From assembly GCF_963921235.1 (NCBI RefSeq), contig NC_086108.1, positions 49,726,001-49,790,000 on the forward strand: a stretch of 64,000 nucleotides of DNA, given 5' to 3'. Shown here in pieces: positions 14,807-47,896 of this stretch. The notes below the pieces were generated by a model. That model saw only the letters and a program-made list of their open reading frames with translations. It was not told the origin of the DNA and did not search any database. Made by a program: the position numbers and the translations under genes. The stretch is from Mobula hypostoma (lineage: Eukaryota). Every line of letters begins with the position of its first letter. The stretch's first letter is position 1.

Positions 14807-14997
14807 ACACAACATTCTGGAGGAACCCAGCAGGCTGGAAAAGAATACAGTTGACGTTTTGGGCCAGAACCCTTCAGACAGGACTGAAATGTCGACTAAA
14901 CTCTTTTCCATAGATGCTGCCTGGCCTGCTGAGTTCCTCAAGCATTTTGTGTGTGTTACTTGGATTTCCAGCATCTGCAGATTTTCTCTTACTTGTG
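14807..14997. mobile_element. Penelope-derived fold-back insertion (older subfamily)
   Basis: Inverted pLTR arms joined near 14885; exact 16-bp direct repeat AGAGAATTCAGATAAC at 14791-14806 and 14998-15013. Confidence 0.8.
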
Positions 14998-16069
14998 AGA
15001 GAATTCAGATAACCAAGTTCTGCAATAAAACAAACTCAACCTCCGTAACACTAATGAAGATGGAGAAACTCAGTAGGTTCTGCCCTTTTTGGGAGCAAAA
15101 TGGCTTCTTATCGTGCAGTACAATTCCATGACTACAGGCTGAGAATTCAACTCAAGCTATTACATTCAGGAGAAATCAGTAGAAAAGGACGAGGAAAAAC
15201 ATGAGCACACATTCCCACCTAGAGGAAACTGAGGATGAAGTGTTCACTCTGAAGGTGAAGTGTAAACCTTTCTGACCATGAGCTAAAGGCACATTTATCT
15301 TTACTCAAGAAATTTCCTTTAAAATAAAAGGATTTTATTTTAAAATCTTTGCATCGAGAGAACGTGACTCACACATTTATCATGTAAAAGGCCATGAATT
15401 ACTTTACATACTATTATATACTGTACAGTATGTATTTACCCCTTTTAAATCAAACTATTAATTCCTTTGGGGTTCAGGCCTTAGTCTGACAGAATTTAAT
15501 ATTTGAGCAGTTGAAAAGATTTATGCTATATGCTACAGGTTACAAAAATTGAGTCTTTGTTCTGGTTCTTCTGATTTGTGATTATTCAAACTGTTAACAC
15601 GTTAAATTTGAAGTTACAATGGGACAAAATATCATCTAATAGGAAAGTTGACTTTTCTACATTGAGGAAAACATCTGGTGTAAAGAACTAAAATTGTGAC
15701 AAATGAAAATAATGTTGACAAAGCAAGTCGGTAAACAGGTTTCAAAAGCTACGTTATTTATAGATTAGGTACAAATTGCCACTCCCTCTTATTTCACATG
15801 CTTGTTTAACAAATAACTTACTCTGGCCTGCTTTTGTAAAAACTCTGTGCATTGCCTAAGGGACTAATGAAGACATTTTGTACTTGGCAGCAATTTGTCT
15901 ATATGTAATTAAAATAAATAGAACCAGAATATCTTTGACACTATTTTCCACTGACCAGAAGCAAAATACTACAGAAATTTACTATAAGCCAAATAAATGC
16001 ATATGTTGGAAAGTTGAAATTTTAAAAAAGAAAATGCTGGATGTCAGCCTGCAGCAATAACTCTTTTTT

Positions 16070-17445
16070 CTCAGTCAACACTTCCTTCTGCGACTGGATC
16101 CTCGAATTACTGACCAACAGAACCCAATAAGTAACGGTAAGCAGCAACACCTCCACCAAGATTATCCGCAACACTGGCGCTGCACCAAGTTGCATCCTCA
16201 GCCCCTTACTCTACCCCCTGTACACTCATGATTACATGACCAGATTCGGTTCCAAATCCAGCTACAAGTTTGCAATTGATATCCAAACAGTGGGCTGTAT
16301 CTCAAATGATGATGGGTCTGAGTACTGGAAAGAGATAGACATCTTAGTAACATGATGTCACAACAACAACCTTTTCCTCAGTGTCGGCAAAACAGAAGAA
16401 CTGGTTCCTTTCTTCAGGAAGTGGAGCTGTACACGTGCTCCTATCTACATCAATGGCACCAAGGAGGGGAATTTCAAGGTCCTCGGAGAGATCATAAATA
16501 GCCTGTCCTTGTTCAATCACCTAGGTGCAACGATCAAGAAAGCTCATCAAAGGGCCGGCTGGTGGCACAACGACATCAGCGCCGGACCTGGGAGCGGAGG
16601 TTCCCGAGTTTGAAACTAGTCGGGTCCGCCCCTGAGTACGCTTTCATCCGTGCCGGGTTGAGTGTCGAGATCGCAACTCGACCTCGTAAAACAAAGGGAA
16701 AGTACTGCGAAAATGTCTGTGTGAGGAGTGGCCCGCCATACAGTCTCTCTCTCGCTCCGCGCCTTGTAAAAAAAAAGTCATGAAAAATCCATCGTCACAG
16801 ACGCACGCACACGCACAGACTCGCACGCACGCAGGCACACGCCAAAAAAAAGCTCATCAAAACCTCTGCTTTCTGAGAGAAATTTGGCATATCCCCAGCG
16901 ACCCTTTCCAATTTGTTTCAATGCGCCATGGAAAGCATCCTATTCAAATGCGTCATGGCTTGGTGTGGCAACCACTCTGCCTGTGACCACAAGAAACTGC
17001 AGAACTTTGTGGACTCAGCTCAGCACATCACGGACACCAGCCTCTCCTCCACGGACTCTGTCTGCACTTCCTGCTGCCTCAGTAAAGCAGCCAGTGTAAT
17101 CAAAGACCCCATCCACCCAGTCTGGGCATTCTGTCTTCTCCCCTCCCCCATTCGGCAGAAGGTACAGAAGTCTGAAAACACATATTTGCAGGCTCAGAAG
17201 GAGCTTCTACCCCACTGTTATAAGACTATTTAATGGTTGCCTTGTACAACAAGATGGTCTCTTGAGCTCACAGTCTTAATGTCTACTTGCACTGCATTTT
17301 CTCTGTAGCTCTAACTCTTTAGTCTGCATTCTGTGATCACTTTACCTTGTACTCTCTCAATGCCTGTGTAATGAATTCATCTGTATGCACCACAGGCTTT
17401 TCACTGCACCTTTCTACACAAGACATTCATAAACCAATGCCAATT
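16070..17445 (+). mobile_element. Degenerate Rex1/Babar LINE RT and 3' region
   Basis: CTGGATCCTCGAATTACTGACCAACAG; LSPLLYPLYTHD-like sequence; ESILFKCVMAWCGN; AASVIKDPIHP. Confidence 0.75.
16552..16848 (+). mobile_element. tRNA-derived SINE
   Basis: A-box-like TGGCACAACG and B-box-like GAGTTTGAAAC; CpG-rich; (CGCA)n and A tail; exact 13-bp TSD AAAGCTCATCAAA (16539-16551, 16849-16861). Confidence 0.85.
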
Positions 17446-17639
17446 CCAAAATTCTAATGTCTGATATGTCAATAATTTACAGCATTTTCTGTTTTTACTG
17501 GAGAATACAGCTTCAGGAGGTTTACTACTATTTTACCTCTTCACCTCTTCCTTTTCTCTGCCCATGACTCCAAACTCTCCTGGCAATTGAACCAAGTACT
17601 TACTTGTGAATCTTCCAATTTATCTATTATTTCTTTTCA

Positions 17640-18005
17640 CTGGCCGATTTGATTTTCTATTTCACTTCCATTCTGGCCTCTCTGCCTTTTGCCTCCTGCA
17701 AGCTCAACGTAATTTTAAGAAACAGCACCATAATGTTCAACTGGACACATGACCAGCATTCCAATGTCAATTCAGGATTCAACCAATTTCAGATAAGCGA
17801 TAAATGAATTTATTATCTCAAGCAATCTCCATGTTATGTTCCTGTTTACATCTTCCTTGGCCTTCCTTTACCACCCTCTTTTGCCTCACTTTAAATTTTT
17901 TCTGCCTTCCACCTTTCATGAACCTTCCTTTGTTTTCTCCCCTCTTCCATTTTCTCTGAACCTTCAAGCCCATTTATTTCTAACTTTTTCCAATTCAGAC
18001 AAATG
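17640..18005 (+). mobile_element. Very old Penelope 3' fragment
   Basis: Weak similarity to the GIY-YIG C-terminus, followed by a pyrimidine-rich 3' UTR like that at 53450-53900. Confidence 0.35.
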
Positions 18006-18764
18006 GCTTCTGGTGGGGGGGGGCACTTAATGAATTGCAGCTGTAGTTCTGAGTTCTGAGTAGCAATGTCTGCCACTGCAGTAGCTTCAGTCCTGATGTC
18101 CTGATTAAACTCACAGTCCAGATCAGTGAATTTGGACCTCCTGCTGTCCCACCACATCACACAACCTGCTTCAGGTGATGTGCTCTGCTCTACATTGACA
18201 CACTTGTCTCTATTTGCAACTCAACAACTCCTCCTGTCATTTGTTTATCTCTAGATTAAGTTGGAAACATTAACTTCCTTCTCTTGGTTGTCTCTCACTC
18301 GCTCTGCACCAGCTCTAGCTATGGCAGCAGTAGTACAGATTCCAACAGGAAGAAGATATCACCAGCCATTTTATATTATAATTAACTTTGGCCAACTGAA
18401 TCTTGTCTTCTTACCTTCATTAGGTCCCGGTGGTGCTCCAGCACACTGCAGGTTGTTTGCCAAGTATCCTGATAACACTCCCATGGATCCACCCTGTGAA
18501 AACATCATAAATAGGGTCAATCACTATGTTAACAACTAATCATAATGAACACTGCTCATAGCAGCTTAATTTTTAAATGCATATCTGTCTAGCAGTTCCA
18601 ATATTTCTATATTACTGTTTGAATTTCTTTTCCTACTCAAACAAAATATTGGTTCATACTTAAATCATAAGGTGCAGTTTTGTAATAATGAGCACTCTAG
18701 CCATATGGACTATACTGCATATGTTCACCGAAATGATAACAGGGATGGGAAACATATTTGTCAT

Positions 18765-19375
18765 TGGGAACACAAGAGATTGCAGGTGCTGGAATCTGGA
18801 ACACAAAAATTTAACATGTCTAGCAGCATCTGTGGAGACATAAAGGTGTAAAGGGTTGGGTAGGACAGAGGTTGGTAAGCAACAGGCAGAATCAGGTGAG
18901 GTGGGAGATGATGGGCAGATGGAGACAGGAATTGGGTCGGTGATGAGGGGCAGGGAAGAAGGAGGTGAGAGAAAGATGGAGACAGGGAGACAGAGTTGCA
19001 GGGTGGTAAGTGGAACCAACTAAGGGCAGGAAACAGGAAAGATAGGCCCACATGAATAGGTTTGTGGGTGAGAAACAGATGGAACCAGGAGAGGGATGGT
19101 AATAGGTTTCAGTGGAAAGGTGAACAATAGGACACAGAACCTATGTGCACTGGTGGGTGTGGGAAAGAAACATGGAGGGAGTGTGTTACCGGAAATTGCA
19201 AAGTTCAATATTCATACTATTCTGCTGTAGGTTACATAAGTGGAATATGAGATGAAGTTTGTGTTTGGCCTCACTGTGGCAGTGGAAAAGGCCAAAGACA
19301 GACAGGCTAGTGTGGGAAGGGCAAGGGCTGGTGTAAGTTGAAATGATATGTAACTGGAAGCACAAGATGGCCCTA
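18765..19375 (-). mobile_element. Old Penelope 3' fragment (GIY-YIG end and pLTR)
   Basis: Minus ORF ends LIFHLCNLQQNSMNIELCNFR, homologous to LIFRLGSLQPDGMNIDFSNFR at 53738; purine-rich UTR and pLTR tail. Confidence 0.7.
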
Positions 19376-20109
19376 ATGGTATTTACCTCCATGTTGAGAA
19401 TTTATATTCCTGCACTAGATGTTTCATCATATTATGTCAATTACTTTAATTTTGAAAAAAAAGTTTATATCGTCACATTTTTTGGTACTGAATTTTAGTT
19501 GCCTAAAATATTTTTGAAATCCTGTGTAGACTTTATTTTCACAGCCTACAATAAAGTTCTGACATAACTTACCCTTAAAAGGTGCCAGCAGTGCCATCTC
19601 GTAAACACAAGTATGAAATGTTTTAACAGTTGAAAGGAAATATTAGGCTTAATGATCCGCAGGAGGAAATTTTTTAAATGTCACCCACAAAGTGAAGTAC
19701 CTAGTAGAACCTGTAACTAAGAGGTCTCTCATTGTCTGCCTGTTATGAAACAAAGCCTTTAAATTCTACTTATGGACTAGTATTGGTGTGTGAATTTTGG
19801 TTTCTATTCAAACTCACTGACTGCAATCAAAAACAGATCCAGATACTTTGGCTTCTAGGTCACTCCCTACTATAACCACACATGAATTTTCCATCCAATT
19901 TTCTGTCCTGCTGATAAATAAACCCAGTTCTGTAAAGTATTTCCAAAAGCTCAGTCATGGCCAAGTACAGTGTGAATGTACTTTGATCTTCAAAATCCAG
20001 CTGCTGGAGTGTTGGCAGAACTGAGGGATAAAAGCAGACACAGTACATAGTGTCCATTAGGCTTATATTCACTGGGGCTTGGGAGAAAGAGAGGGCATCT
20101 CATAGTGAC

Positions 20110-20485
20110 CTACAAAATACTCACAGTAGTGGACAGATTGGATATAGTAAAGATATTCCTGAAGGTACAAGAGGTAAGGACTATGGTTTATTGTCTAAGG
20201 AAAAAGATAAGCCATTTTCAAATGAAATGAGGATTTTTTTTTGTCCCAGAGAGTGAGGAACCTGTGGAATTCTCAACCACAAATGGCAACTGAAGCCAAA
20301 ATCATTTAAGATATTCAAAGAGGAGTTGGATATTTTTGAAGGCTAGAGATCAAGGATTGGGATGGGGGAGGAGTGGGTTGTTGGGACTGGGACACGGTAC
20401 TGAATTTGGAAAAACAGCCATGATAGCATTGAATGGTGCAAGCAGGCTTGAAGGACTGAATGGCCTATTTCCATTTTCTATTCCA
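20110..20485 (+). mobile_element. CR1 3' fragment
   Basis: GAAATGAGGATTTTTTTTTGTCCCAGAGAGTGAGGAACCTGTGGAATTCTC..GAATGGCCT matches the other CR1 3' ends in the window. Confidence 0.6.
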
Positions 20486-20577
20486 AACAAGAATGAGAGT
20501 TTTAAAGCAGGGGATTTTCTTTTCATACAAGGAGTAATGTTGGTTATACGTGACACCTGCCAAGGAGCTTCACTACC

Positions 20578-21088
20578 TAAGGTTGCCAACTGTCCTGTAT
20601 TTGCTGGGACATCCCGCATATTGGGCTAAATTGGTTTGTCCCATAAGGGACCACCCTTGTCCCGTATTTCCCCCACTAAGGTAGAGCGTTCCTATGAAAC
20701 CTTTCGTGCCGAAATGGCATAAAGTGAAGAAGCAATTACCATTAATTTAAATAGGGAAGATTTTTGAGCGTTCCCAGACCCAAAAAAAACCTACCAAATC
20801 ATACCAAATAACACATAAAACCTAAAATAACACTAACATATAGTAAAAGCAGGAATGATATGATAAATACACAGCCTATATAAAGTAGAAATAATGTATG
20901 TACAGTGTAGTTTCACAACAGAATCGGGAAGATTAAACCAAAACCGATTTGCACGTACAGGGATGAGCACACAGGTGCCCACGCAAAGCTTCATGGTCAT
21001 GGTAGTCTTTCTCGGGGTAAACACAAGTGTGTCGTATTTGACTGCTACTTTTGTCCCTTATTTGGGAGTGAGAAAGTTGGCAACCCTA
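20578..21088. mobile_element. hAT-type MITE containing a captured Tigger terminal segment
   Basis: TIRs TAAGGTTGCCAACT / AGTTGGCAACCCTA; 8-bp TSD TCACTACC / TCACCACC (1 mismatch); interior ~20665-20930 matches the reverse complement of the right end of the Tigger at 49493-51075. Confidence 0.85.
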
Positions 21089-22744
21089 TCACCACCATAG
21101 CTGACAGTGTGGAAGAATTAGGTTCTAACCTGCTTGGTGTCAGCTGGCAGGATGTCAGCACATGAGACTGAAGATTTCCAGAAATCAGCAAATTTGAAGA
21201 TGCTCACAACCACAGTGCTTTTTTTTTAATGGAGGGGGAGTTCAGAGAGAAGCTGATGTAATGTAGCTTCCTGAGCCAGCAGGAAGAAAGACCATGGGCA
21301 ATGAGTGTCCTCCCGTGGGGATACTCGGCAAAACTCAAGAAAGCAGGTCTTGTCTTACAGATTTTATTGACTACTAACAGCCCCAGCTGTTGTTGCCTGA
21401 CTATTTAAAGCAGTAAAGGGAAAAGTTGCCATTGATTGGTGGACAGAAAATGATGTGGGAGAGGACAGAGAATCACAGTGGCTGGCTGGTATCTTAGACC
21501 TTCCATAAGGTGCACCCCTTACAACTGTACACAAATCCTAGTGGTCAAAGAAGTGACAACCAGGGAGTTTCCAGTTATGTCACTCAGTGAAGGCAAAGTC
21601 AATGAGTTTTATTGAGTGTGTTTTCCACTGAGTGAGAAATAACTAAAAGTTGGCAGGTTTTTGGCAAGATCAGAGGTATACCACACCCTCAGTACTAAAC
21701 CCTCTAGATGACATGCTCAAGACTGTTGTGTGACCTAACAAAGAACCATGGAGATAAGAGTACAACTGGAAACATTGCAGACCACAATATTATATTTCAT
21801 ATTTAGTAATGTTCCTCCATTGTCTGCTAGTTTATGCCCCATCTCATGCTGGTTTCCCTTAATCACTAGGTCCTGTTCCATTTTATAAGGCATAGCATAC
21901 CTCCCTGGGCTTCTTTTTAGTGGTCGTTTCTACTGGAGGCTAATGTGAGAACTCTTGGGACCCCTGAATAACATTCAGCAAATTGCAACTTTAACAGTGA
22001 CCCTTTATCGATTTTGTTCTGCCCTTTGATGTGTATGTTGATAAAATGGAAGTATAGGCAGTAAGCTGAACCAAGCTGAAAGCTGAAAATCTGCTCGATC
22101 TAGTTAAACAGATTCATGCAAGAATCAATTAGTTTTGCGCTTCAACAGTCTTTTTCTGCGAGTCTTACTCCTTCCCCTCCTCCTTCAACTTGTAGCATCC
22201 TCTTCTGCATGATATTATTAATTTCTAAGCTTATCTGTGAGTTTCAGGTATTAGTTGACTGTCTTACTAGACATACACATTCCAATGGGTTATGCGTCTG
22301 GGGCTGGAAGTGTCATTGGTTTCAAGCTCCCTCACCCAGGACACGCAGTTCATTTTAAGTATCCCAAACTCACCTGGGCAGAAATCAACTAACTCAGAAA
22401 ACAGTTTGGATAATGAATCACTTTGGGTAATGGAGAATTTTTATGGTTATGCATTTTATAGTCCTGATTAAATTAAAAGTACCTACTGAAGGAGTGTATT
22501 GTTTTGCTGCTAATTAGATACGCAGTACCAAAGATTCCACTTCCAAGCAGAAAATGAACCCATACAAATCATTCAGAGCTGAATGAGATATCACACAAAG
22601 CATTTTCCCAGCAACTGCATGTTATTATTTGCCACATTTATCAAAAGATTATCTTCAGACTTATGGAAAAATAAAGTATTATTGTAGTCAAAAAGTCATT
22701 TTTAAAATGACCCAAAAAGAGGGTATCACATTTATAAATAACAA

Positions 22745-23120
22745 ATGTGAAACAGGGACACCTCTTTTTCCCTTATTAGGGAGAGAGAGAGCCTGTGGTA
22801 TATCAAATTACCAGGTGAATGAGCAGTCTTTGGGATGTTGTAAGTCTATGTCTTTATTGATGCTTTGCTGCACACTTGAGTGCTCGGTGGAGGGGGCGGG
22901 GGCACCGATGCTTTTTTGCTGGTGGGGAGGGGTCATTACCTTGCTGCTGCTTGTGCCTGGGAGCAGGGAGCTGGTGGGGGGCTTTGGGGTTCTAACATTT
23001 AACTGTCATTCATTCTTTGGGGCACTGTTTTCGTGGATGTTTGCAAAGAAAAAGCATTTGAGGATGTATATTGCGTACATTTCTCTGACATTAAATGCAC
23101 CTATTGAAACCTATTGAAAC
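22745..23120 (+). mobile_element. 3' part of a non-coding non-autonomous retroelement (same family as 54975-55303)
   Basis: Shares GGGAGAGAGAGA..CCTGTGG, TTTAACTGTCATTCATTCTTTGGGG and TTTCTCTGACATTAAAT with 55000-55303; short tandem tail CCTATTGAAA x2. Confidence 0.65.
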
Positions 23121-23271
23121 ATAGCGAATGAAACCAGACAAACACTGTATCTAAAATGGCAATGGGGTCGCTTTCATTAACATTCATTCACAGAAATATA
23201 TTGCCTATTCTTGTTCTTAAAAAGTAGAAAACAATGTTAGCAGCTGATTGTCTACTCAGAAAAAAAGCACT

Positions 23272-24750
23272 TAAGACCATAAGATATAGGAGCAGAATTA
23301 GGCCATTTGGCCCATCAGGTCTGCTTCGTCGTTTCATCATGGCTGGTTGTAGATTACAGGAGGAATGGAGACGGGCTAACCCCTATTGACATCAATGGAT
23401 CTGGGGTTGAGAGGGTGAACAGCTTCAAGCTCCTCGGCATACACATCACCGAGGACCTCACGTGGTCTGTACACACCAGGTGTGTGGTGAAAAAGGCACA
23501 ACAGCGCCTCTTTCACCTCAGACTGTTGAAGAAGTTTGGTATGGGTCCCCAAATCCTAAGAACTTTCTACAGGGGCACAATTGAGAGCATCCTGACTGGC
23601 TGCATCACTGCCTGGTATGAGAACTGTACTTCCCTCAATCGCAGGACTCTGCAGACAGTGGTGCGGACAGCCCAGCGTATCTGTAGATGTGAACTTCCCA
23701 TGATTCAGGATATTTACAAAGACCCGTGTGTAAAAAGGACCCATAGGATCATTGGGGACCCAAGCCATCCCAACCACAATCCATTCCAGCTGCTACCATC
23801 TGGGAAGCGGTACTGCAGCATAAAAGCCAGGACCAACTGGGGCAGCTTCTTCCACCAGGCCATCAGACTGATGGACTCATGCTGATTTGAGTGTAATCTA
23901 TATTACATTGACTGTTTTATTTATTATAAATTACTATGATTGCACATTGCACATTTAGATGGAGTCATAACGTAAAGATTTTTACTCCTCATGTATGTGA
24001 AGGATGTAAGAAATAAAGTCAATTCATTGAAAGCCATTTTTCCTCTCAGCCTCAATATTCCTTCATGCCCTGACTAATCAAGAATCTATCAACTTCTGCC
24101 TTAAATATACCCAATGAATTGGCATTCACAGCCACATGTAGCAGCGAATTCCACAGATTTACCACTCTTCTGCTAAAGAAATTCCTCCTCATCTCCATTC
24201 TAAAAGGATGCCATTCTATTCTGAGGCTGGGTCCTCTGGTCTTAGACTCTCCCACCATAGGAAACATCCTCTCCACATCCACTCTATCAAGGCCTTCCAC
24301 TATTCGATAGGTTTCAATGAGGTCACTTTTCATTTTCTGAATTCCAGTGAGTAGAGGCCCAGCGCCATCAAATGTTCCTCGTATGACAAGTTTTTCATGA
24401 ACCTTCTTTGAACCCTCTCCAATGTCAGCACAACCCTTCATAGATAAGGGGCCCAAAACCGCTCACAATACTTCAAGAGAGGCCTCACCTGTGCTTTATA
24501 AAACCTTAGTATTACATCCTTGCTCTTATATTCTAGTCCTCTCAAAATGAATGCTAACTTCACATTTGCCTTCCTCACCACCAACTCAACCTGAAAACTA
24601 ATCTTAGGGAATCCTGCATTAGGACTGTCAACTTCCTCTGCACCTCAGATTTTAGAATTTTCTCCCCATTTAGAAAATAGTCTATGCTTTTATTTCTTCT
24701 AGCAAAGTGCATGACCATACACTTCCTAACACTATATTCCTTCTGCCACT
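23272..24750 (-). mobile_element. CR1 3' fragment split by a Rex1 insertion
   Basis: Tail TAAGACCATAAGATATAGGAGCAGAA at the left; minus ORF DLIETYRIVEGLDRVDVERMFP..RRNFFSRRVVNLWNSL. Confidence 0.8.
23343..24025 (+). mobile_element. 5'-truncated Rex1/Babar LINE 3' end
   Basis: VVDYRR..VERVNSFKLLGIHITEDLTWS..KAQQRLFHLR..FYRGTIESILTGCITAWY..FQLLPSGKRY; AATAAA near 24011. Confidence 0.88.
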
Positions 24751-25783: not shown

Positions 25784-26096
25784 TGCCTCTTTTTTGGATA
25801 TTAAAAGTATTATGTATTTTCAGCAGGGTGATAAAGGGAAGGCCTCCTGTTTTTTGGATAGTAGAAGTATTATGTATTTTCATCAAGATGACAACAGGAA
25901 TGCCTCCTGTTTTTTGGATAGTAGAGGTATTATGTATTTTCATCAAGGTGACAACAGGAATGCCTCCTGTTTTTTGGATAGTAGAGGTATTATGTATTTT
26001 CATCAGGGTGATAAAGGGAATGCCTCCTGTTTTTTGGATAGTAGAGGTATTATGTATTTTCATCAGGGTGATAAAGGGAATGCCTCCTGTTTTTTT
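25784..26096. repeat. Minisatellite, 60-bp unit, ~5.2 copies
   Basis: TGCCTCCTGTTTTTTGGATAGTAGAGGTATTATGTATTTTCATCAGGGTGATAAAGGGAA repeated in register. Confidence 0.95.
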
Positions 26097-26244
26097 CGCA
26101 TTGTGCCGAAAGCAATCAGACCAAGAATTCAGTGGGTTATCGGGATGGCAACTTCTTTTACTCTACTTCTATGAGCTTAGTATTATCTTCTCTCTACTCA
26201 AACAATGCAACGCTTTCAGCTCCATCCACAATTATCCTTGGGAA

Positions 26245-26888: not shown

Positions 26889-26963
26889 TCAGAAATAAGG
26901 AGATAGTGGAATCAGTGTGCTAATGACAAAAATCTTGGCCAAAATGGGGAGGGGGGAGGGGGA

Positions 26964-29745: not shown

Positions 29746-29880
29746 GTCCTGATGAAGAGTCTCGGCCCAACAAGTCGACTGTTTATTCCTCTCCAAAGAT
29801 GCTTCCTGAGTTGCTGAGCCCCCCAGCATTTGGTGTGTGTTTCTCTGAATTTTCATCATCTGCAGAATCTCTGTGTGTTT
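29746..29880 (+). mobile_element. Old Penelope pLTR fragment starting at a degenerate hammerhead
   Basis: GTCCTGATGAAGAGTCTCGGCCCAACAAGTCGACT followed by pLTR tail; the GAAA core is mutated. Confidence 0.7.
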
Positions 29881-36329: not shown

Positions 36330-37300
36330 ATCCTGGCCAGGCAGCATCTATGAAAAAGAGGACAGTCAACATTTCGGGCCGAGACTCCTCAGCAGGACTG
36401 GAGAAATAAAGATGAGGAGGAGAGTTAAAAGGTGGGGGGAGGAGGGAAGGAAGAAACACAAGATGATAGGTGAAACCGGGAGGGGGAGGGGTGAAGTAAA
36501 GAGCTGGGAAGTTGATTGGTTAAAGAGATACAAGGCTGGAGAAGGGGGAATCTGATTGACGAAGATGGAAGGCCATGGAAGAAATAGAAGGGGGAAGAAG
36601 CACCAGAGGGAGGCGATGGGCCGGCACGGAGACAAGGTTAGAGAGGGGAAAAGGGGATGGGAAATGGTGAAGGGGGGGTGGGGGGCATTACCAGAAGTTT
36701 GAGAAATCAATACTCATGCCATCAGGTTGGAGGCTACCCAGACGGGTGTTGTTCCTTCAACCTGAGTGTCGCCTCATTGCAACAGTAGAAGAGGCCTTGG
36801 ATAACCAGAAGTTTGAGAAATTGATGTCCATGCTATCAGGTTGGAAGATACCACTCCCCCCCCCTCACTTCACCATTCTCCATCCCCTTTTCAATCTCTT
36901 CACCTTATCTTCTTGCCTGCCCATTACCTTCCTCTGGTGCTCCTCCCCACTTTTCTTTCTTTCATGACCTTCTATCCTCTCTTATTAGATTCCCCCTTCC
37001 TGTCCTCTCCTATTGGATTCCCCCTTCTCCAGCCTTGTATCTCTTTCACCAATCAACTTCCCAGCTCTTTACTTCACCCCTCCCCCTCCCAGTTTCACCT
37101 ATCACCTTGTGTTTCCCCCTCCGCTCCCTGCACCATTTAACTCTACTCCTTTTCTTTCTTTCTGCAGTCCTGCTGAAGGGTCTCAGCCCAAAACGTCGAC
37201 AGTCCTCTTTTCCATAGATGGGGCCTGGCCTGCTGAGTTCCTCCAGCATTTTGTGTGTATTTCTTGGATTTCCAGCATCTGCAGATTTTCTCTTGTTTGT
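36330..37300. mobile_element. Penelope-derived ~1 kb inverted-repeat insertion
   Basis: Minus-oriented 3' UTR/pLTR (36333-36690) and plus-oriented copy (36850-37300) surround two short GIY-YIG C-terminal pieces; degenerate hammerheads near 36365-36400 and 37167-37202. Confidence 0.8.
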
Positions 37301-37462
37301 GATTGGATACCATATTCCTAATCATTGATATATAACCATGAAAAGAAACAATCCTAACACTAACACCTGCAGAACACCACTAGTTACCAGCAGTCAACCA
37401 GGAAAAGCTCCTTTATTCCCACTCTTTTCCTGCTGCCAGTAAGCCAATCTTCTAACCATGCT

Positions 37463-37657
37463 AACAACAGGAATTCTGCAGATGCTGGAAATTCAAGCAA
37501 CATACATCAAAGTTGCTGGTGAACGCAGCAGGCCAAGCAGCATCTATAGGAAGAGGTGCAGTCGACGTTTCAGGCCGAGACCTTTCGTCAGGACTGCACC
37601 TCTTCCTATAGACGCTGCTTGGCCTGCTGCGTTCACCAGCAACTTTGATGTATATTG
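37463..37657. mobile_element. Penelope-derived fold-back insertion
   Basis: ~65-bp inverted arms around a hammerhead core; 14-bp direct repeat CTTCTAACCATGCT at 37449-37462 and 37658-37671. Confidence 0.9.
37560..37595 (-). ncRNA. Minimal type I hammerhead ribozyme motif
   Basis: Minus: AGUC CUGACGA A AGGU-CUCG-GCCU GAAA CG UC GACU; complete core, stem I, stem II and palindromic ACGU stem III. Confidence 0.75.
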
Positions 37658-38074
37658 CTTCTAACCATGCTGGTATCTTTTCTATAATACCACGGGCACT
37701 TATCTTGTTAAGCAGCCTCATTGTCAAAGGCCTTCTGAAAATCCAAATATACAACATCCACTGATTCTCCTTTGTCTATTCTGCTTGTTATTTCCTCAAA
37801 GAATTCCACAGATTTCTTAGGTAAGATTTCCTCTTAAGGAAACCATATTGATTGAGTGATATTTGCAATTTTCCAGTCTTCCAGAACCATTCCAGAATCT
37901 AGTGATACTTTAAAGATTGTTACTAATGCCTCCGAAATCTCTTCAGCTACCCTCTTTCAGAACCCTGGGGTGTAGTCCATCTGGTCCTGGTGACGAATCT
38001 ACTTTCAGACTTTTCAGCTTCCCAAGCATTTTTTCCTTAGTAATAGCAACAACACTCACTTCTATCCCCTGCGT

Positions 38075-40961
38075 CAATCTCTCTAATATTAAAGAAGGAT
38101 AAAGATCTTGCTCAATGTGCATCTTATAGACCAATATCTTTATTAAATGTTGATTCTAAATTTTTTTCTAAGTTATTAGCAAACAGATTAGAAAAAGTAC
38201 AAACAACAGGAATTCTGCAGATGCTGGAAATTCAAGCAACATACATCAAAGTTGCTGGTGAACGCAGCAGGCCAAGCAGCATCTATAGGAAGAGGCGCAG
38301 TCGACGTTTCAGGCCGAGACCCTTTGTCAGGACCTTTTGTCTTGACGAAGGGTCTCGGCCTGAAACGTCGACTGCGCCTCTTCCTATAGATGCTGCTTGG
38401 CCTGCTGCGTTCACCAGCAACTTTGATGTATGTTGCTAGCAAAAGTACTTCCTTCTATTATTTCAGAAGACCAAACGGGTTTTGTTAAAGGTCGTTACTC
38501 TTTTTATAATATTCGCACACTGTTAAATATTGTTTATACCCCCTCACAAAATGTTCCTGAGTGTGTTATCTCTTTAGATGCTGAGAAAGCTTTTGATAGA
38601 GTAGAATGGCCTTACTTATTTAAGGTGCTTGAAATGTTTAATTTTAGCTCGAAATTTATATCCTGGATCAAACTGTTATATCATTCTCCTGTGGCCTCGG
38701 TCCGTACTAACTCTCTAAGCTCACCCTTTTTCCCTCTTTTTCGAGGTACTCGACAAGGTTGTCCTCTTAGTCCTTTATTATTTGATATTGCATTAGAACC
38801 TCTTGCAATTGCCATTCGAGAATCTCCAAATATTACTGGGATAACTCGGGGCTTAAAGTCCCATAAAATATCACTCTATGCTGATGACTTACTTTTATAT
38901 ATTCCTAATCCTCAAAAATCCATCCCTGCTGTTTTAGAGTTATTAGCACCATTTAGTCTCTTTTCAGGGTATAAATTAAATCTTAGTAAGAGTGAAATTT
39001 TCCCGATTAATAAACAACTTCCCTTATATCATAACTTCCTGTTTAAATTGATTAATAATTATTTTTCATATCTTGGGATTAAAATTACTTGTAAATACAA
39101 AGATTTATTTAAGATTAACTTTTTACCCTTAATTGACCATATTATTCAACTTTCATCTAAATAGTTTCCTTTATATTTAACTTTGATTGGTCGTATTAAT
39201 GCGGTTAAGATGTTTTTTCTGCCAAAATTTCTATATATATTTCAGGCATTACCGATTTTTGTTCCAAAATCTTTTTTTGATAAAGTTGACTCAAAAATTT
39301 CTTCATTTATTTGGCAAAATAAAAACCCGAGACTGGGTAAAATACATTTACAGAAAGCTAAGAGAGATGGAGGTTTAGCATTACCTAACTTTAGATCCTA
39401 TTATTGGACAATTAATATTCGACATATGAAATTTTGGTTACTTGACCAGGATATACTATCCATTCCTAAATGGGTAGCATTGGAATTACAATCTGTTCAG
39501 GGCTATACACTTGGCTCTATTTTAGGTTCCTCTCTTCCTTTTGATTTGAAACGCTTCAAACAGATATCTAACCCGATAGTTAAATATACCTTACGTATTT
39601 GGTTTCAATTCAGAAGATTTTTTGATCTTAACCAATTTGGGCTAGCGATTCCTATTTTAGGTAACATATTTCTTCATCCCTCTTTTACGGATCGTGCTTT
39701 TCAAATTTGGAAGACTAAGGGTATTTCACGGTTTTTGGATTTATTTTTAGATGGTTCCCTTATGTCTTTTGAACAATTATCTAATAAATATAATTTATCA
39801 AGAATAAATTTTTTTAGATATCTACAAGTTAGAAATTTCCTAAGTACTGTACTTTCTTCTTTTCCAATGCTTCCTCCTACATACATTTTAGATACTATAA
39901 TCAACCTTAATCCATGTCAGAAAGGTGTATCGGCTATGATTTCTAATATTATTATGAAACTTAGGAAAGCTCCATTTGATAAGATTAGGGTAGATTGGGA
40001 ACAGGAATTGGGGCCTATCATTTCCGTGGATGACTGGGGGCAGATTTTACAATTAGTCAATACTTCCTCTATCTGTGCTAAACATTCCCTAATTCAATTT
40101 AAAGTTGTTCATAGAGCACATATGTCCAAAGATAAATTAGCTCGCTTTTATTCTCATATTAATCCTTTTTGTGATAGATGTCTGGGGCAGATAGCCTCTT
40201 TAACTCATATGTTTTGGTCTTGTCCTACTCTGGAAACATTTTGGAGAGACATTTTTAATATTATCTCAAAGGTATTGAATATAGATATCTCTCCTCATCC
40301 TATTACTGCTATCTTTGGACTACCTAAAATTTCCAGTAATCTTTCTCCTTCAGCCCGTAGAATGATTGCATTTCTTACTTTAATGGCGAAAAGATGTATC
40401 TTACAACATTGGAAAGAGCTTAATGCTCCAACCACCTTTTTTTGGTTTTCTCAGACGATATTATACTTGAATTTGGAGAAAATTAGAAGCAATCTTTATG
40501 ATTCCTCACTTAAATTTGAACAGACCTGGAGATCTTTTATTCAATATTTTCATTTAATGTAATTTTTTTTCTTCTCTTTTTTGCTCCATATTTATATACT
40601 CTTCCTGTTTTTTTTTTCTGTTTTTAATGAGGTCGGGTTTGAGGACGTAATTTTAAGTTCTTTAACTCTACTTGTTTCTAAGTTAGCCCATTGCTTTGCT
40701 TTGCTTTCAGTTAGTTGCACGGTGGATTTTTTGGGGGGTTTTTTTTTCCTTTTCTCTATTGGTATATATATATATATATATATAAAATTAGTATACTATT
40801 ATGTTACCTTAGTATGTTATGTTTAAATTACATTGTTTGTATCACTTTTTTTTCTGTATTAATATCTCCTGTAATTTTATTATATTCTAACAGTGTATTA
40901 GTGCCTATATGGCTTAGCTTTTTGTATACTTATTCAATAAAAAGATTTAAAAAGAAAGAAA
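38075..40961 (+). mobile_element. 5'-truncated L1-clade LINE (ORF2 RT, C-terminal Cys domain, 3' UTR)
   Basis: YRPISLLNVDSK, DQTGFVKGR, SLDAEKAFDRVEW, RGTRQGCPLSPLLF, LYADDLLL and CDRC..LTHMFWSCP; one in-frame stop at 39162-39164; AATAAA and A-rich (AAAG)n tail at 40935-40961. Confidence 0.92.
38201..38436. mobile_element. Penelope-derived fold-back insertion inside L1 ORF2
   Basis: ~98-bp near-perfect inverted arms (38236-38333, 38339-38436) with a 5-nt spacer; flanks TAGAAAAAGTAC / TAGCAAAAGTAC (12 bp, 1 mismatch). Confidence 0.9.
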
Positions 40962-41678
40962 GTCTATTTCAGTATACAATACCCAATCCAGAATAGCCTT
41001 TCCCCTAGTGGATTCAACCACAAGCTGCTCAAAAAGTCACCTCGTTTGTATTCTACAAATACTCTTTCTTGGGAATCAGTACAAACCTGACTTTTGCAAA
41101 TTACCCGCATATTGAAATCCCCCATGACTATTGTATTAGGAGGCGGAGTTTAGGAGGAATAATGGTGCCTACGGCGACTCCTTTGCTTGCATCTTCGGAA
41201 TCAGCTCTATTTTTACCTCTAATATCTTTATTTTTCCCTTTCAGCGTTCTTTTGAAGACCCTGACCTGGAGTTACATGCAGGCTTCAGTTCTTAGCAGGA
41301 ATAGGACCCATTCTCGGGGTTGCATGACTGGCTGTTATTCAACATGCCAAGGGTTTTGGATTGGGACAAAAGAGCAGTGTGGGAGCTGAATTCTGAAGGA
41401 AGGCAGTTTTTTAAAAAAAACCTCGAGTGCAAGAAAGACGAGACTGCGCAGGCGCGTGACGTAACAGGACAGCGCAGAGAGTTTTAAAAAGGAAGGTTAC
41501 TTCCAACAGCTTTCTTAGCTTCCGAGTCGATTTGGACTTTGATCTTCGGTGGCTGAGTTGGCTCGACTGGAAGCTGGCTGTGTTTTGCTTGATGCGTGAA
41601 TGTGGTTTGGAACCTGTTGAGGGAAAGAGAGTGGGGAAGGAACGGAAATTGCTGGGAGGGGGTTGTGTGGGTCCGGTA

Positions 41679-42909
41679 ATGGTGGACAAGATAAGAGGCG
41701 GGGTTGAGGGAAAGAAAGTGGAGAAGGAGAGGGATAGAGGCTTGGGACCAGAGGTGGGCAGCTGGGGAGAGGTGGATTATTGTGAAGGGAGAAATAAAGG
41801 GAATGAGGAGGTAATAAGGGGTCGGATGAATAAAAACCAAGACAAAGGGAATAAAAGAATAAGAAATGATAGTGGAGAAAGCTCTGAAAGTGAGGAAGAT
41901 GAACAAGCTCAGAGAGGAGGTGTTGTCATAATTAGGTTTAATGAGAAGGCTCAGGGACATATGAAGAAAATTAACCCGTTTGTGCTAACAACAATTCTGA
42001 CAAATAAGATAGGGGAAATAGTATTTGCAAAAGTCCTTAATGATGGCAACTTATTGGTAAGATGTGCGAATGAGGAACAACTTGAGAAAGCACTCAAGCT
42101 AAAAGAGATAGGAAAATGCAAGGTGGAATACACTGGGAGGGTGGGAGCACAAAACAGTGGATGTAAAGGAGTGATCACGGGGATACCAATGAGTATAAAT
42201 ATGGAGGAGATAAAGAGGAATATCAAAGGAGGGAAAGTAATGAATGTTCAAAGACTGAAAACAACAAAGGAGGGAGTGAAAAAGGAAAGAATCTGTATTG
42301 ATTGAATTTGAAGAAGAAAGAGTGCCAAGGAAGGTGTTCCTGGGTTTCATGAGTTACCCAGTAAGGGTATATGTGCCAAAGCCATTGAGGTGCTATAATT
42401 GTCAAAGGTTTGGACACGTGGCTAAAAACTGTAAAAGGCAGAGGAGATGTGCTAGATGTGGGGGTGATCATGAATATGGAAAGTGCGGAACAGGAGTTCA
42501 ACCAAAATGCTGCAATTGTGGAGGAGCTCATAATGTTGCATATAGTGGGTGTGAGGTTGTGAGACGGGAGACTAAAATTCAAGAAATAAGAGTGAAAAGA
42601 AAGATCACTTATGCAGAAGCTGTAAGAATGTCAAGAGAACAGAATAATGCTCCTAATAAACAGGGAGTAATAGGGATATGAGAGATGCAACAAAGAACAA
42701 ATGACAGGATTTATGTAGACAAAAAGGCTCTAGTAACATTCATTGCAGGAGTGATTAATAGTATGGCTGAGGTAAAGTCAAAAAGTGACAAAATTCAGCT
42801 GGTGGTAAAAGCAGCAGTAAACCATTTAGGGTTAGTAGGACTGACATGGGAGGAAGTGAGGGAGAACCTCAGTAATCAGTCAAGCCAGGAAGTGTCATGT
42901 GTTGGTTAA
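41679..42909 (+). pseudogene. Nimb-like ORF1 (gag-like, three CCHC zinc knuckles), disrupted
   Basis: PLRCYNCQRFGHVAKNC, RCARCGGDHEYGKC and KCCNCGGAHNVAYSGC; frameshift near 42295 and stop at 42679. Start codon uncertain. Confidence 0.88.
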
Positions 42910-42917
42910 TACTAATT

Positions 42918-45900
42918 ATGGTGATTCTTTTACAATGGAATGCAAGGAGCTTACTGGCCAATAGCCAGGAATTCAAGCACTTTGTTAAAGAAATGGTTGT
43001 AAAACCGGATGTAGTGTGTATTCAGGAAACTTGGTTGAAACCAACTTTAGACTTTGTGGTATATGGGTATACAATGATAAGGAAAGATAGAAATCTAGGG
43101 GGAGGAGGGGGTTGTGCTATGTTAATCAAGCAAGGTATACCATATAGGGTACTGGAAAAAGGAGATGATCAGGAATACATAGTGGTGGAAGTGTGGGAGA
43201 GAGGGGAGGGAGTGGATATAATTAACTACTACAATCCATGTAAAAGGTTGGATTTGGACAGCCTATTAAAGATACAAGGACAAAACAGACATAAAGTAGT
43301 GGGGTGTGCAGATTTCAATGCTCATAGCACAATATGGGGGGATCAGATTACAGATCCAAATGGAAAGGTAATTGAAGATTTGATGGAAGAAAGGGATTTG
43401 GTGTGTATGAATGATGGTAGCGGCACAAGGATAGATATAACAACAGGAACTGAGTCAGTGTTAGATATTACGTTAGTGTCTAATACCTTGGCTGGCATTA
43501 GTAACTGGGGAGTTTGGACTGCTTCAACAGTAGGCAGTGATCACTACCCAGTTTTGTGTTCAGTGGGTGAAAGAGTTGAAGTAAGACCAGGTGGTGGAAC
43601 CCCAAAGTGGGTGTTTGAAAAAACTGATTGGGGTAAGTTCCAGAAGTTGAGTGAAGAAGGGTTGACAAAGATTGATATTTCTTGAAATGTAGATGAATTA
43701 AACAGTCAGGTGATTTCAGCAATTATCATGGCAGCAGAAGGATCTATACCTAGGAGTAAAAATAGGATGAATAGAAAACTAGTACCATGGTGGACAGAGG
43801 AATGTTGTCAGGCTGTAAAAAACAGAAATAGAGCATTCAGGCTAGTTAAAAGAACCCATAATATGCAGCATTTGGTTCAATATAAGAAAGCACAGGCAGT
43901 GGTGAGAAGAACTATACGTCAAGCTAAAAGGGCAAGTTGAAGGAGTTTTTGCAACAAGGTAGGAAGAACAACACCTGTGGGAGAGATATGGGGAATAATT
44001 AAGAGGATGGGAGGAGATAGAAGGGAATGGGAATATCCAGTAATGATATCTGAGGAGGAAACTGCAGTCTACAGTAGGGATAAGGCTGAGGTCATGGCCA
44101 AGTCATTTGTTCTGATACACAGTTCAGAAAATTTGTCTGAAGAAGGGAGAAGAAGAAGGGAAAGAATAATGAGCCAACACCCAGGTGTGTTAAGCAGGAG
44201 GGAAGGAACAGATGATATAATTGATGATCCATTTACATTAGCAGAAATGGTGAGAGCAATAAAGAGATCGAGACCAACCTCCCCAGGGAAAGATCTGATA
44301 TGCTCTGTGGTGCTAAAAAATCTAGGAGAAGGAGCGCTCTTGAAGTTGCTGCATTTTTATAACAGAGTGTGGGAGGAGGGAAGATTACCAAGTGCATGGA
44401 AAGAAGCAGTAGTAATTCCAATAAGGAAGCCTGGCAAGGATCTGTCAAAACCCACTAGCTACAGACCAATTGCATTAACATCAAGTATATGTAAGATAAT
44501 GGAAAGGATGATAACAGAAAGGTTATCATATGAGCTTGAGAAAAGGGGAATGCTGGCAAGTTATCAGAGTGGTTTTAGAAAGGGAAGGAATTCCATGGAC
44601 TCAGTGATTATGTTAAGAGACTGAAATAAGGAAGGCCCAGGCAAATAGAGAGTCAGTAGTGGCAGTGGTCTTTGACATTGAAAAAGCCTATGATATGATG
44701 TGGAAGGAAGGATTATTAATTAAAGTGCACAAGATGGGGGTTGGTGGGAGAGTTTTTAATTGGATTAAAGATTTTTTGTTTGGTAGAAAAATTCAAGTTC
44801 GGATTGGATCAGAATTATCAAAACAGTACATAGTGGAAAATGGCACACCTCAAGGTAGTGTGATTAGCCTGTTACTTTTCATCATTATGATCCATGATGT
44901 CTTCACAAAGGTACCAGTGGATATAGGTAGGTCACTGTTTGTGGAAAAGGGGCAGGAACATGGACCATATAATCAGGAAACTACAAGAAGCAATTGATGA
45001 AGTGGTGGAGTGGGGTTATGGTTGGGGATGTAGATTTTCAGTAGATAAAACTCAAACTGTATTTTTTACCAGGAAAAGGGTTGAGGTAGGGAAGAAGTTA
45101 AGAATGTATGGGGTTGAATTAGAAAGGGTTGCATCATTTAAATTTCTGGGAGTTATATTTGATTCACGATTAACATGGGCAGACCATATCAGGAAAGTTG
45201 AGGAGAAATGTAAAAAAGTAATAAATGTGATGAGATGTTTGATTGGTAGAGAATGGGGAGCAAGTTGTTCAGCTTTGAAGAGAATGTATGTGGCTTTAGT
45301 GAGATCTGTATTGGATTATGGAAATATAGTATATGGATCAGCAGCTAGGTCTCTTATAAGGAAACTGGATGTGATTCAGGCTCAGGCCTTGAGAGTGTGC
45401 AGTGGGGCTTTTAAAATGTCACCAGTGTCAGCCCTACAGGTAGAAATGGGAATAATGCCTTTGGAATTAAGAAGGATGCAACTGATGGCAAACTACCGGG
45501 CTAACTTGCAGGGGCACAATGATTCTCACCCTACTAAAGGAGTGTTGCAGGAGCGCTGGGAAAATGGGAGGTTTCAGAGGGATAACTTTAGTCGGGTAGG
45601 GAATGATATTGCTAAAGAATGTGGAGTATTTGATCTGAGGATAAGTCCTTCAGTAGTTTATCCGGTTGTAGCTCCATGGAAGCTTGTGTGGCCTGACATA
45701 GACTGGCATTTGTTAGAGGTAAAAAGGAAAGAAAGATATAAAACAGATTTGGTAAATGCATTTAACTGTCATGTGATGGAAAAGTATAGTGATTACACTC
45801 ACATTTATACGGATGGTGTGAAGGAACCTGAAACAGGAGTGACAGGGTTTGGGGTGGTAATACCAGCAAAAGAAATTGGAATCAGCAGAAGAACATCTAA

Positions 45901-46661
45901 TAAGTTAGGGGTGTTTACAGTGGAGATGCTGGCAGTGTTGGTTGCGTTGCAATGGGTGCAGAAAGCCAGACAAGCCAAAGCATTGATATGTTCAGATTCA
46001 TCCTCAGTTCTAGCAAGTTTAAGGTCTTTTCACACAAACAGTCGGCAAGATGTACTTTATGAAGTCCTTCAGTTAGTTACAAGAATTGCAAATCAGGGAG
46101 GTCAGGTAAAATTTCTATGGGTTCCAGCACATGTAGGGGTGAAGGGGAATGAGAGGGTGGATGAGTTGGCAAAGAGGGTGTTAAAGAAAGAAAATGTGGA
46201 AATGCACATTAGTATCAGTAAAGTAGAGGTTAAGTGTGTAATCTGGGAAAAAGTCAACCAAATGTGGCAAGAAAGATGGGACAGGGAGGGGAAAGGGAGG
46301 CATTTATATCAAATACAAAAGAGTGTTGCAGTTACTAGGGTAGGTAATGGAAACAGAAGAGAGGAAATTGTGTGGACTAGGTTAAGGCTGGGGCATTGTG
46401 CATTAAATAAATAAAACATTGAAAATGATAGGGAAACGCCAGACAGGATTGTGTGAGGAATGTCAGGAAGAAGAGTCAGTAGAACATGTAGTTCTGAATT
46501 GCAGGCAGTATGGGATACAGAGAGAGAGGATGAGAAATAAATTAAGGGAGTTGGGGATGCAAGAATTCACATTAAAAGGGTTGCTGGGCATGCGTGAGAG
46601 AGCACAAGTCCGGGTATTTTTAGCGTTTTTACAAGGGTTTTTTATAGAATATGACGAATAA
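42918..46661 (+). pseudogene. Nimb-like ORF2 (APE endonuclease, RT, RNase H, Cys motif), disrupted
   Basis: ILLQWNARSL, CIQETWL, DFNAH, GSDHYP; YRPIALTS, DIEKAYD, GTPQGSVIS; IYTDG, ICSDS, WVPAHVGVKGNERVDELAK; CEEC..EHVVLNC; several stops and frameshifts. Confidence 0.9.
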
Positions 46662-46712
46662 ACAGGAATAGGATACTAGGATGGTCAAAGATGGGAGGGT
46701 GAAGTGTAGGTT

Positions 46713-46714
46713 TG

Positions 46715-46746
<32 letters not shown>

Positions 46747-46764
46747 CGCGCACGCGCGCGTGCG
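46713..46764. repeat. Compound (TA)n(TG)n(CG)n alternating purine-pyrimidine tract
   Basis: Directly visible in the Nimb-like 3' UTR. Confidence 0.9.
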
Positions 46765-47673
46765 ATTGAGTGCAAGGATTTAGAATGTATGTCTAGTGCA
46801 CATTCTGGAGCAGAGGGTGGCGGTAATGCACCATTAAGCTGGATGCCAACCGCCGTAAAAACAAGATACAGACAGACAGAACAGCTTTCTTTTGGATCGG
46901 GACAACAGAGCGGTGTGGGAGCTGAATTCTGAAGGAAAGCAGTTTTTTTAAAAAACTTCCAGTGCAATAGGGACAAGACTGCGCAGGCACGTGACGTAAC
47001 AGGACAGCGCGGAGAGTTTAAAAAGGAGACCACCCGATACAGCGGGCAGCTGTCGGAGCGGGCAGTGGAGTGAGTGGTAGCAGAGTGTAGGGTTTTGGCT
47101 TTAACGGGCTTCGGCAGTAAACAGGAAGAGGTGAGAACAAAGCACCAACTCTTTTTTTTTCTTCCCCCACCTTCGCGAATCGGCCCAGACAGACAGGATC
47201 AGCAGGGCTCTCACAGATAACAGTACGAGCTAACGGTTAAAAAGTTTGTGTGCTTGGCGAGGTAAGTGGGTGAGTAGACTTATTTTTCCTGTTTCATTCC
47301 TGTAGAATTAGATAGCATACCTGCAGGGTTAGTGCTTTGTTCAGGGTGTCAGATGTGGGAATCCTGGAAAACCTCCAGCCTCCCTGATGGCCACATCTGC
47401 GCCAGGTGCACCGAGATGCAGCTCCTCAGAGACCGTGTTAGGGATCTGGAGCTGCAGCTTGATGACCTACTGCTTATCAGGGAAAGTGAAGAGGTGATAG
47501 ACAGGAGCTACAGGGAGGTAGTCATCCCTAGGCTACAGGGGTCAGAAAACTGGGTCAGGAGAGGGAAGGAAAATGCCAGGATAGTGGAGAGCACACCTGT
47601 GGCTGTCCCCCTCAGCAACAAATATCTTGTTCTGGATGCTGTTGAGGGGGATGACCTGACAGGGGACAGCTAT

Positions 47674-47896
47674 CAACAGGAATTCTGCAGATGTTGGAAA
47701 TTCATGCAACACACATCAAAGTTGCTGGTGAATACAGCAGGCCAGGCAGCTTCTCTAGGAAGAGGTACAGTCGACGTTTCAGGCCGAGACCCTTCATCAG
47801 GACGAAGGGTCTCGGCCTGAAACGTTAACTGTACCTCTTCTTAGAGATGCTGCCTGGCCTGCTGCGTTCACCAGCAACTTTGATGTGTGTTGCTTG
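47674..47896. mobile_element. Penelope-derived fold-back insertion inside CR1 ORF1
   Basis: Inverted arms meeting at ~47800; exact 13-bp TSD AGGGGACAGCTAT (47661-47673, 47897-47909). Confidence 0.92.
47769..47803 (-). ncRNA. Minimal type I hammerhead ribozyme motif
   Basis: Minus: GUC CUGAUGA A GGGU-CUCG-GCCU GAAA CG UC GAC(U). Confidence 0.72.

Follow-up and report, generated by a model that had tools for sequence, protein, structure and literature searches.

Short fold-back insertions that contain a hammerhead ribozyme motif may be mobile elements in their own right or by-products of a larger retroelement, and this is the question raised by four insertions, designated e1 to e4, in a 64,000-nt stretch of the Mobula hypostoma genome (contig NC_086108.1, positions 49,726,001 to 49,790,000; this whole stretch is referred to as the window, and its features are collected in Table 1). 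An original prediction regarded these insertions as a separate family of ~200-bp hammerhead-containing elements and considered two readings, i.e., (a) a stereotyped by-product of Penelope integration and (b) a self-propagating hairpin or retrozyme-like family, with a preference for repeated formation de novo. The data reported here support reading (a) but not reading (b); with a probability of roughly 0.7, e1 to e4 represent extremely 5'-truncated insertions of an abundant Penelope-like element (PLE), each of which would have been made de novo by two reverse transcriptions from two staggered nicks.

All four elements share a common plan, in which the terminal ~65-100 nt of a repeat appear first in antisense, followed by a turning point and then by the same region in sense, with the sense arm running ~35 nt further, into a terminal segment referred to here as the tail; the repeat sequence from which they are built is the last ~100-135 nt of a PLE. 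That these are four real insertions was borne out by the presence of hairpin arms and direct repeats of 12-16 bp on each of them; as a control for chance, a shared word of at least 10 nt was found in 2 of 400 shuffled pairs of left and right flanks. The inverted arms are shortest in e1, where they consist of segments of 31 nt (87% complementary) and 24 nt (79% complementary). A complete hammerhead core is present once each in e2 and e4, while both ribozyme cores of e3 carry a substitution (...TTGACGA on one arm and ...CTGACAA on the other); the junction of e4 is of a common type in which the arms share GAC. No tandem (head-to-tail) units were found within e1 to e4. Two of the four insertions had been noted to interrupt open reading frames (ORFs) of long interspersed nuclear elements (LINEs), and they do; e3 is inserted in an RVT_1 ORF, which it splits into 38047-38439 and 38427-39164, and e4 is inserted in an ORF1 with a GDSL/OSK esterase domain, the halves of which are located at 47278-47820 and 47898-48551. 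For e3, the empty site was found as well, as a contig from sequencing run X1 joins position 38187 to position 38436 and lacks exactly e3 and one copy of the repeat; this contig is the uninterrupted form of the LINE. The other contigs from four runs that were compared over 37300-38700 contained fragmentary repeat pieces only.

In the 3.48-Gb genome, a 31-nt word from the tail had 35,975 matches and a 32-nt word from the body had 44,687, with no matches for the reversed control of either word, and a junction pattern spanning the turning point had 4,145 matches, again with none for the control. Two sets of matches were characterized, including (i) a tail-anchored sample, which consists of the 90 tail matches that come first by position on a single contig, and (ii) a body-anchored sample of 70 arms, which correspond to places 1-31 and 33-71 of the body-word listing (place 32 was left out); the two samples overlap in genomic region and were not pooled. 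The tail-anchored sample comprised 45 fold-backs, 37 solo 5'-truncated copies, and eight complex cases with other or incomplete inverted pieces. As fold-back lengths ranged from 66 to 1,415 bp (36 of the 45 measured no more than 288 bp and nine measured 437-1,415 bp), the ~200-bp elements represent the common short end of a continuum of PLE fold-backs, and the proposal that they form a family of their own was not upheld. Target duplications of at least 10 nt flanked 42 of the 45 fold-backs and 20 of the 32 solo copies whose 5' end was inside the fetched DNA. An inverted partner abutted the 5' end in 53/90 tail-anchored and 31/70 body-anchored cases and the 3' end in 0/90 and 1/70 cases, respectively; since partners are located at the 5' end and virtually never at the 3' end, the head-to-head layout does not represent a chance adjacency of repeats.

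The two arms of a fold-back differ in a consistent manner at their outer ends (positions within the repeat are given here relative to the predicted ribozyme cut, with 0 as the base after it). In the tail-anchored sample, the partner arm lacked the tail in 45/45 fold-backs, with its outer end at +53 to +72 in 41 and at +20 to +34 in four. In the body-anchored sample, 27/27 fold-back arms belonged to pairs in which one arm was tailed and the other tail-less (or shorter), and among the 70 arms there were no fold-back pairs with two tails or with none; solo copies in this sample occurred both with (18) and without (21) the tail. With regard to the inner ends, the tail-less arm extended inward beyond the tailed arm by more than 10 nt, and by up to ~950 nt, in 19 of the 45 fold-backs, the tailed arm reached further inward in nine, and the arms were near-symmetric, with ends within 10 nt of each other, in 17. 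In those 19 fold-backs each arm contains sequence that the other lacks, and therefore neither arm was copied from the other and two reverse transcriptions from RNA are needed. Arm identity was 98.4% within one fold-back, as compared to 94.2% between fold-backs (22 fold-backs, 231 cross pairs), which indicates that both arms come from one RNA or one source.

The parent of these insertions is an endonuclease-positive PLE, as judged from the predicted reverse transcriptase (RT) and C-terminal GIY-YIG domains that follow each other in a single ORF. In a long copy elsewhere in the genome, this 547-aa ORF matches RVT_1 at residues 86-200 (E 1.7e-5, 25.1 bits versus a Pfam cut-off of 29.6) and GIY-YIG at residues 450-524 (E 4.3e-4, 21.0 bits versus a cut-off of 22.6), and the closest ESM Atlas clusters (0.97) carry HTH_animal, RVT_1, and GIY-YIG. 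Long copies are numerous and mutually 98-99% identical; their tail sequence continues into the element body, and in 12 of the 30 long copies examined a direct partial copy of the hammerhead region, i.e., a pseudo-long terminal repeat (pLTR), is located upstream and is contiguous with the body, with a variable extent from -88 to beyond -873. A stretch upstream of one long copy was considered as the 5' end of the element and rejected, as the search had matched an unrelated high-copy repeat; this ~330-bp, SINE-like repeat (3122-3452 of locus L153) is present in thousands of near-identical (95-96%) genome copies, with 4,686 first-look candidates. Words of the PLE 3' region were also present in sequencing runs of at least nine organisms, with shares of 0.17-0.71 (runs X1-X24), and close relatives of this PLE family thus appear to occur in several species.

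The anatomy, the copy numbers, the target duplications, the restriction of the tail to one arm, and the mutually exclusive arm sequences, all of which were observed directly, can be accommodated by a scheme in which the GIY-YIG endonuclease would nick both target strands about 12-17 bp apart, with the stagger giving the target duplication. The cDNA primed by one 3'-OH would begin at an outer start site (about +101 to +112 relative to the cut) and take in the roughly 35-nt tail; the cDNA primed by the other 3'-OH would begin at an inner site (about +53 to +72), located at the base of an AC-rich stem-loop, and would form the tail-less arm. Both cDNAs would be antisense copies of the same RNA or source, many of them stopping in a zone that lies 24-60 nt upstream of the cut and marks the hammerhead's front edge; their 3' ends would then pair by microhomologies of 0-3 nt (frequently the words GTC and GAC from the ribozyme helices) and extend on each other, and this mutual extension would complete both strands and leave a head-to-head fold-back. 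A precedent for parts of this scheme is available, as cleavage and extension of both target strands have been reported for a purified PLE protein, which starts reverse transcription at two internal sites whose spacing equals the 30-40 bp tail (PMC11167929). We infer in what order these events take place and that only a single RNA is used; that one RNA serves both arms and that the inner site is used first is a conjecture, with which the 19:9 excess of longer tail-less arms agrees.

A number of points weigh against this scheme. Sampling covered the first ~6 Mb of a single contig and relied on an unmutated word of 31-32 nt, which biases the samples to young copies, and arm ends were taken from BLAST boundaries, with an accuracy of about 3 nt. 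The Pfam scores for RT and GIY-YIG are both slightly below the curated cut-offs, and the mechanism is, for this organism, derived from genome sequence. In addition, the start sites used in vitro are the same for the top and the bottom strand (PMC11167929), so that a strict rule of one of each would need extra coupling of the two start sites. Finally, for the 17 near-symmetric fold-backs, self-priming by a single cDNA would serve equally well.

Self-priming, a hypothesis put forward in PMC3846280 (cited here, as are PMC4209133, PMC8557442, and the bioRxiv preprint below, from excerpts), states that one cDNA primed at the target nick snaps back and copies itself into the second arm. It was inferred there from palindromes at inverted junctions, and it fits both the near-symmetric fold-backs and junctions such as ...GGACTAACTGAAGG joined to GTCTC; furthermore, the RNA is predicted to form a hairpin at -46 to -17, and a cDNA copied to -42 or -45 would fold with a paired 3' end. 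A self-copy cannot, however, exceed its template, and in 19/45 fold-backs the tail-less arm holds inner sequence that is missing from the tailed arm; self-priming also offers no reason for the second arm to end about 35 nt short every time. While self-priming may contribute to symmetric fold-backs, it is not the sole route, and we consider it an unlikely general explanation. Priming on both target strands is favored over self-priming of one cDNA because of the one-tail rule, the mutually exclusive arm sequences, and a zone of 5' ends that is shared by solo and fold-back copies.

This zone is located at -60 to -21, where 21/45 tailed arms, 24/45 tail-less arms, and 17/37 solo copies end; since solo copies end there too, it represents a general hot zone for 5' ends and is not specific to fold-backs. 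Its location is ahead of the ribozyme rather than at the cut, and it coincides with the predicted hairpin mentioned above (loop at -32, -10.5 kcal/mol), the 3' half of which is the ribozyme core. The claim that the inversion point lies in or next to the hammerhead was therefore correct as a statement of position but does not describe a property of fold-backs, and the zone is ahead of the ribozyme. Two explanations for these ends were considered and rejected. RNA cleaved by the hammerhead is not the usual template, as only 11 of 127 ends, including that of the e2 tail-less arm, fall within -5 to +8 of the cut site, a number that is compatible with occasional use. An element RNA that starts at the front edge of the hammerhead was rejected because all 12 long copies extending into the 5' pLTR continue across this point, which indicates that the templates of long copies do not start at the hot zone; none of the 30 long copies examined starts at -60 to -20, and the 5' ends of solo copies are spread over -23 to -51 with no constant extra G. 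The hot zone may come from a separate class of short RNAs, or from termination or template switching at a structured region.

With regard to the ribozyme itself, canonical copies contain, in this order, CTGACGA, GAAAC, and the triplet GTC, which forms the palindrome GTCGAC with the GAC after it. The predicted hammerhead has a helix I of 5 bp, in which TAGTC pairs with GACTG, the sequence ACGT at the position of helix III, inside the palindrome GTCGAC, and, behind GA, one additional A; A-U may take the place of the usual G10.1-C11.1 pair. The minimal hammerhead ribozymes of PLEs are described as having a core of CUGANGA ... GAAA, a cleavage triplet NUH, a short helix I, palindromic positions 15.2-16.2 (a dimer-forming helix III), and an additional base between positions 9 and 10.1 (excerpts of PMC4209133). 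Read against these rules, the repeated PLE end bears the features of a putative minimal type-I hammerhead. The presence of a hammerhead in the four elements, as originally predicted, can consequently be retained as a motif legible by eye, but its cores are partly defective and no Rfam hammerhead model matched at the gathering threshold, nor at E<=10 over 37400-38500; the Rfam matches to the hairpins were look-alikes of miRNA precursors only, below thresholds. A pyrimidine tract at -47 to -36, which ends in CAG at -36 directly before helix I, resembles a 3' splice site (e.g., at 53446-53470, minus strand); in Drosophila virilis Penelope, the 5' end of helix I coincides with the end of an intron (PMC4209133, in part). 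For e3-like copies, an apparent G/A difference between arms (at core position G8 and at C3) was considered as cDNA editing or as selection for dead ribozymes, and both were rejected; the difference represents a search bias, as the genome search skips very common words and candidates were seeded by the rare variants of e3. Junction-proximal sequences printed from the positional sample have the canonical base.

Reading (b), in which a non-autonomous, retrozyme-like hairpin family is transcribed as a unit and recopied by the Penelope enzyme, can be evaluated by the junctions, which had been expected to differ among copies if fold-backs form de novo. The genome-wide test confirmed this expectation, as junctions are scattered and every arm length is present. 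The 25 distinct closest relatives of e3 are 85-97% identical to it over its full length, and e3 and these relatives all differ from one another in the spacer at the turning point and in the outer end of the tail-less arm. Junction types that recurred among the 100 listed instances are those in which the arms share GAC, CT, or AC, i.e., microhomologies of 2-3 nt, and they occur across several subfamilies; no fold-back family with one shared junction was found. Fold-backs thus likely form anew at each integration. The sole hint of secondary mobilization comes from two fold-backs, L089 (contig C1, near 3,842,167) and L116 (near 5,740,649), which share an identical unusual junction with a filler base as well as a substitution on the tail-less arm only, and which have different target duplications. 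This exact junction occurs twice in the genome; a third instance is in a different subfamily and hence arose independently. As L089 and L116 each have terminal sequence absent from the other, neither is the parent of the other, which suggests that both descend from a third fold-back, i.e., a case of rare re-mobilization. Since the 3' end of a fold-back retains the tail and the start-site region, a transcript reading through it might in principle serve as a template; such a transcript would, however, contain only one sense ribozyme, locked in a long duplex. Together with the unique junctions and outer ends of the e3 relatives, the spread of junction types across subfamilies, and a continuum of arm lengths to over 1 kb, this makes a propagating hairpin family very improbable.

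A comparison with animal non-LTR retrozymes (bioRxiv 10.64898/2026.07.22.740005, excerpts) leads to the same outcome. Retrozymes are likewise short non-coding derivatives of PLE pLTRs with type-I hammerhead motifs, but they consist of tandem hammerhead repeats that yield circular RNAs, and in such head-to-tail tandems neighboring ribozymes can act as dimers, whereas fold-backs are head-to-head, have at most one sense ribozyme per transcript, and give no indication of propagating as units. The descent of retrozymes from a master copy is not matched here either, as junctions and outer ends differ and the only set with shared descent is one pair. The fold-backs are not retrozymes and do not represent a new ribozyme retroelement system; they are real but ordinary. 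Finally, although palindromic repeats do trouble assemblies (PMC8557442, in part), it is hardly conceivable that the palindromes are assembly or library artefacts, given that each of e1 to e4 has a target duplication, that arms have diverged by 2-20%, that the architecture is found thousands of times, each time between other flanks, and that the LINE is also present in an uninterrupted form, which matches the empty site of e3.

The architecture of these insertions, with an inverted pLTR, a one-sided tail, and a target duplication, is already in print, and the fold-backs are its most truncated form. In the available passages of PMC8557442 and PMC3846280, the typical insert of an endonuclease-positive PLE is likewise a head-to-head arrangement with an inverted 5'-truncated copy, a target duplication, and a tail at one end (optional and 30-40 bp long, as compared to about 35 nt on one arm here), and it likewise has a hammerhead in the repeated end and a parent that encodes RT and then a C-terminal GIY-YIG. 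In the fold-backs described here, by contrast, both copies are cut to about 100-135 nt, which leaves the terminal piece only. The target duplication also differs in length (8-10 bp in the Adineta PLE versus 12-17 bp here), and the one-tail rule was strict in 72 fold-back observations, while the passages cited say "often" or "optionally". As here, the Anolis Poseidon PLE in vitro (PMC11167929) has two internal start sites one tail apart, with an AC-rich stem-loop there, both target strands are cleaved and extended, and uncleaved RNA is the main template. The Anolis ORF, however, starts inside the ribozyme, whereas here the frame from that position closes after 14-33 codons and the tail enters a 5' leader; in addition, the two arms here always come from different sites, in contrast to the lack of a strand preference of start sites in vitro.

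Besides e1 to e4, the window contains other pieces of the same repeat (Table 1). These include a fifth fold-back, at 36335-37301, for which no clear target duplication was found, and a parent PLE copy, which lacks the tail and ends at 53344; its 5' limit is approximate, and its homology to long copies begins about 1,560 nt upstream of the cut site. Several LINE families alongside the PLE seem to have been active recently, and LINE copies with long open frames are located at 47278-49566 and 42876-46414; one LINE copy encodes an endonuclease behind an ORF1 that contains a GDSL/OSK esterase domain, and another has an endonuclease, a reverse transcriptase, and an RNase H. An open frame at 23283-23885 matches ALKBH8_N (E 7.9e-14) and may belong to a retroelement ORF, not a host gene. 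A decayed LTR-type retroelement is located at 6592-8360 on the minus strand, where frames match RVT_1 and an RT-associated RNase H-like domain.

Table 1. Fold-back insertions, their arms and target-site duplications, and other copies of the same repeat in the window.
Feature	Position	Strand	Description
Fold-back e1	14807-14997	+	Older subfamily; hammerhead core degenerate; 89% identity to copy at 37191-37301
e1 tail-less inverted arm	about 14807-14875		
e1 tail-bearing sense arm	about 14880-14997		
e1 target-site duplication	left 14791-14806, right 14998-15013		16/16 positions identical; 16-bp direct repeat AGAGAATTCAGATAAC
Fold-back e2	37463-37657	-	69-nt arms, 97% complementary, 28 nt between arms
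e2 tail-bearing arm	37463-37591	-	Minus-strand sense; complete hammerhead motif within
e2 tail-less arm	37592-37660		Starts at predicted ribozyme cut site; GAC common to both arms
e2 target-site duplication	left 37449-37462, right 37658-37671		14/14 identical; 14-bp repeat CTTCTAACCATGCT
Fold-back e3	38201-38436	-	99-nt arms, 98% complementary, 5 nt between arms
e3 tail-bearing arm	38201-38333		
e3 tail-less arm	38339-38437		
e3 target-site duplication	left 38189-38200, right 38437-38448		11/12 positions identical; 12 bp
Fold-back e4	47674-47896	-	97-nt arms, 92% complementary, 2 nt between arms
e4 tail-bearing arm	47674-47798		
e4 tail-less arm	47801-47897		
e4 target-site duplication	left 47661-47673, right 47897-47909		13/13 identical; 13 bp
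Fifth fold-back	36335-37301	+	Longer and older, e1-like subfamily; arms about 350-440 nt, 79-90% complementary; tail on right arm
5'-truncated parent PLE copy	53344-54975	-	GIY-YIG end of ORF 53738-54670 (E 1.6e-4), 3' untranslated stretch, hammerhead
Solo short copy	1603-1708	+	Starts at hammerhead front edge, ends without tail
Solo short copy	29746-29880	+	Diverged subfamily; 73-79% identity to others

In L1 twin priming, the second target strand primes on the element RNA, which gives an inverted 5' segment within one target duplication. The two segments produced by twin priming come from adjacent, non-overlapping parts of the RNA, whereas both arms of the fold-backs described here copy the same 3'-terminal region, which is reverse-transcribed twice. 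The PLE transposition cycle is still poorly understood, and the fold-backs constrain models of it, as they provide tens of thousands of minimal insertions in each of which three end points, namely the outer and the inner start as well as the turning point, can be read with nucleotide resolution. Tentatively, and with somewhat less than even odds, PLE integration in vivo could consist of two coupled reverse transcriptions, one per nicked strand, which always start at two different sites of a single RNA, separated by about 35 nt; the inner site would be the first to be used, and the cDNAs would then prime each other's second strand. If true, this coupled scheme would set PLE integration apart mechanistically from the target-primed reverse transcription of LINE and R2 elements, and a single scheme would account for the tail and the inverted pLTR, with no need for a separate second-strand primer.

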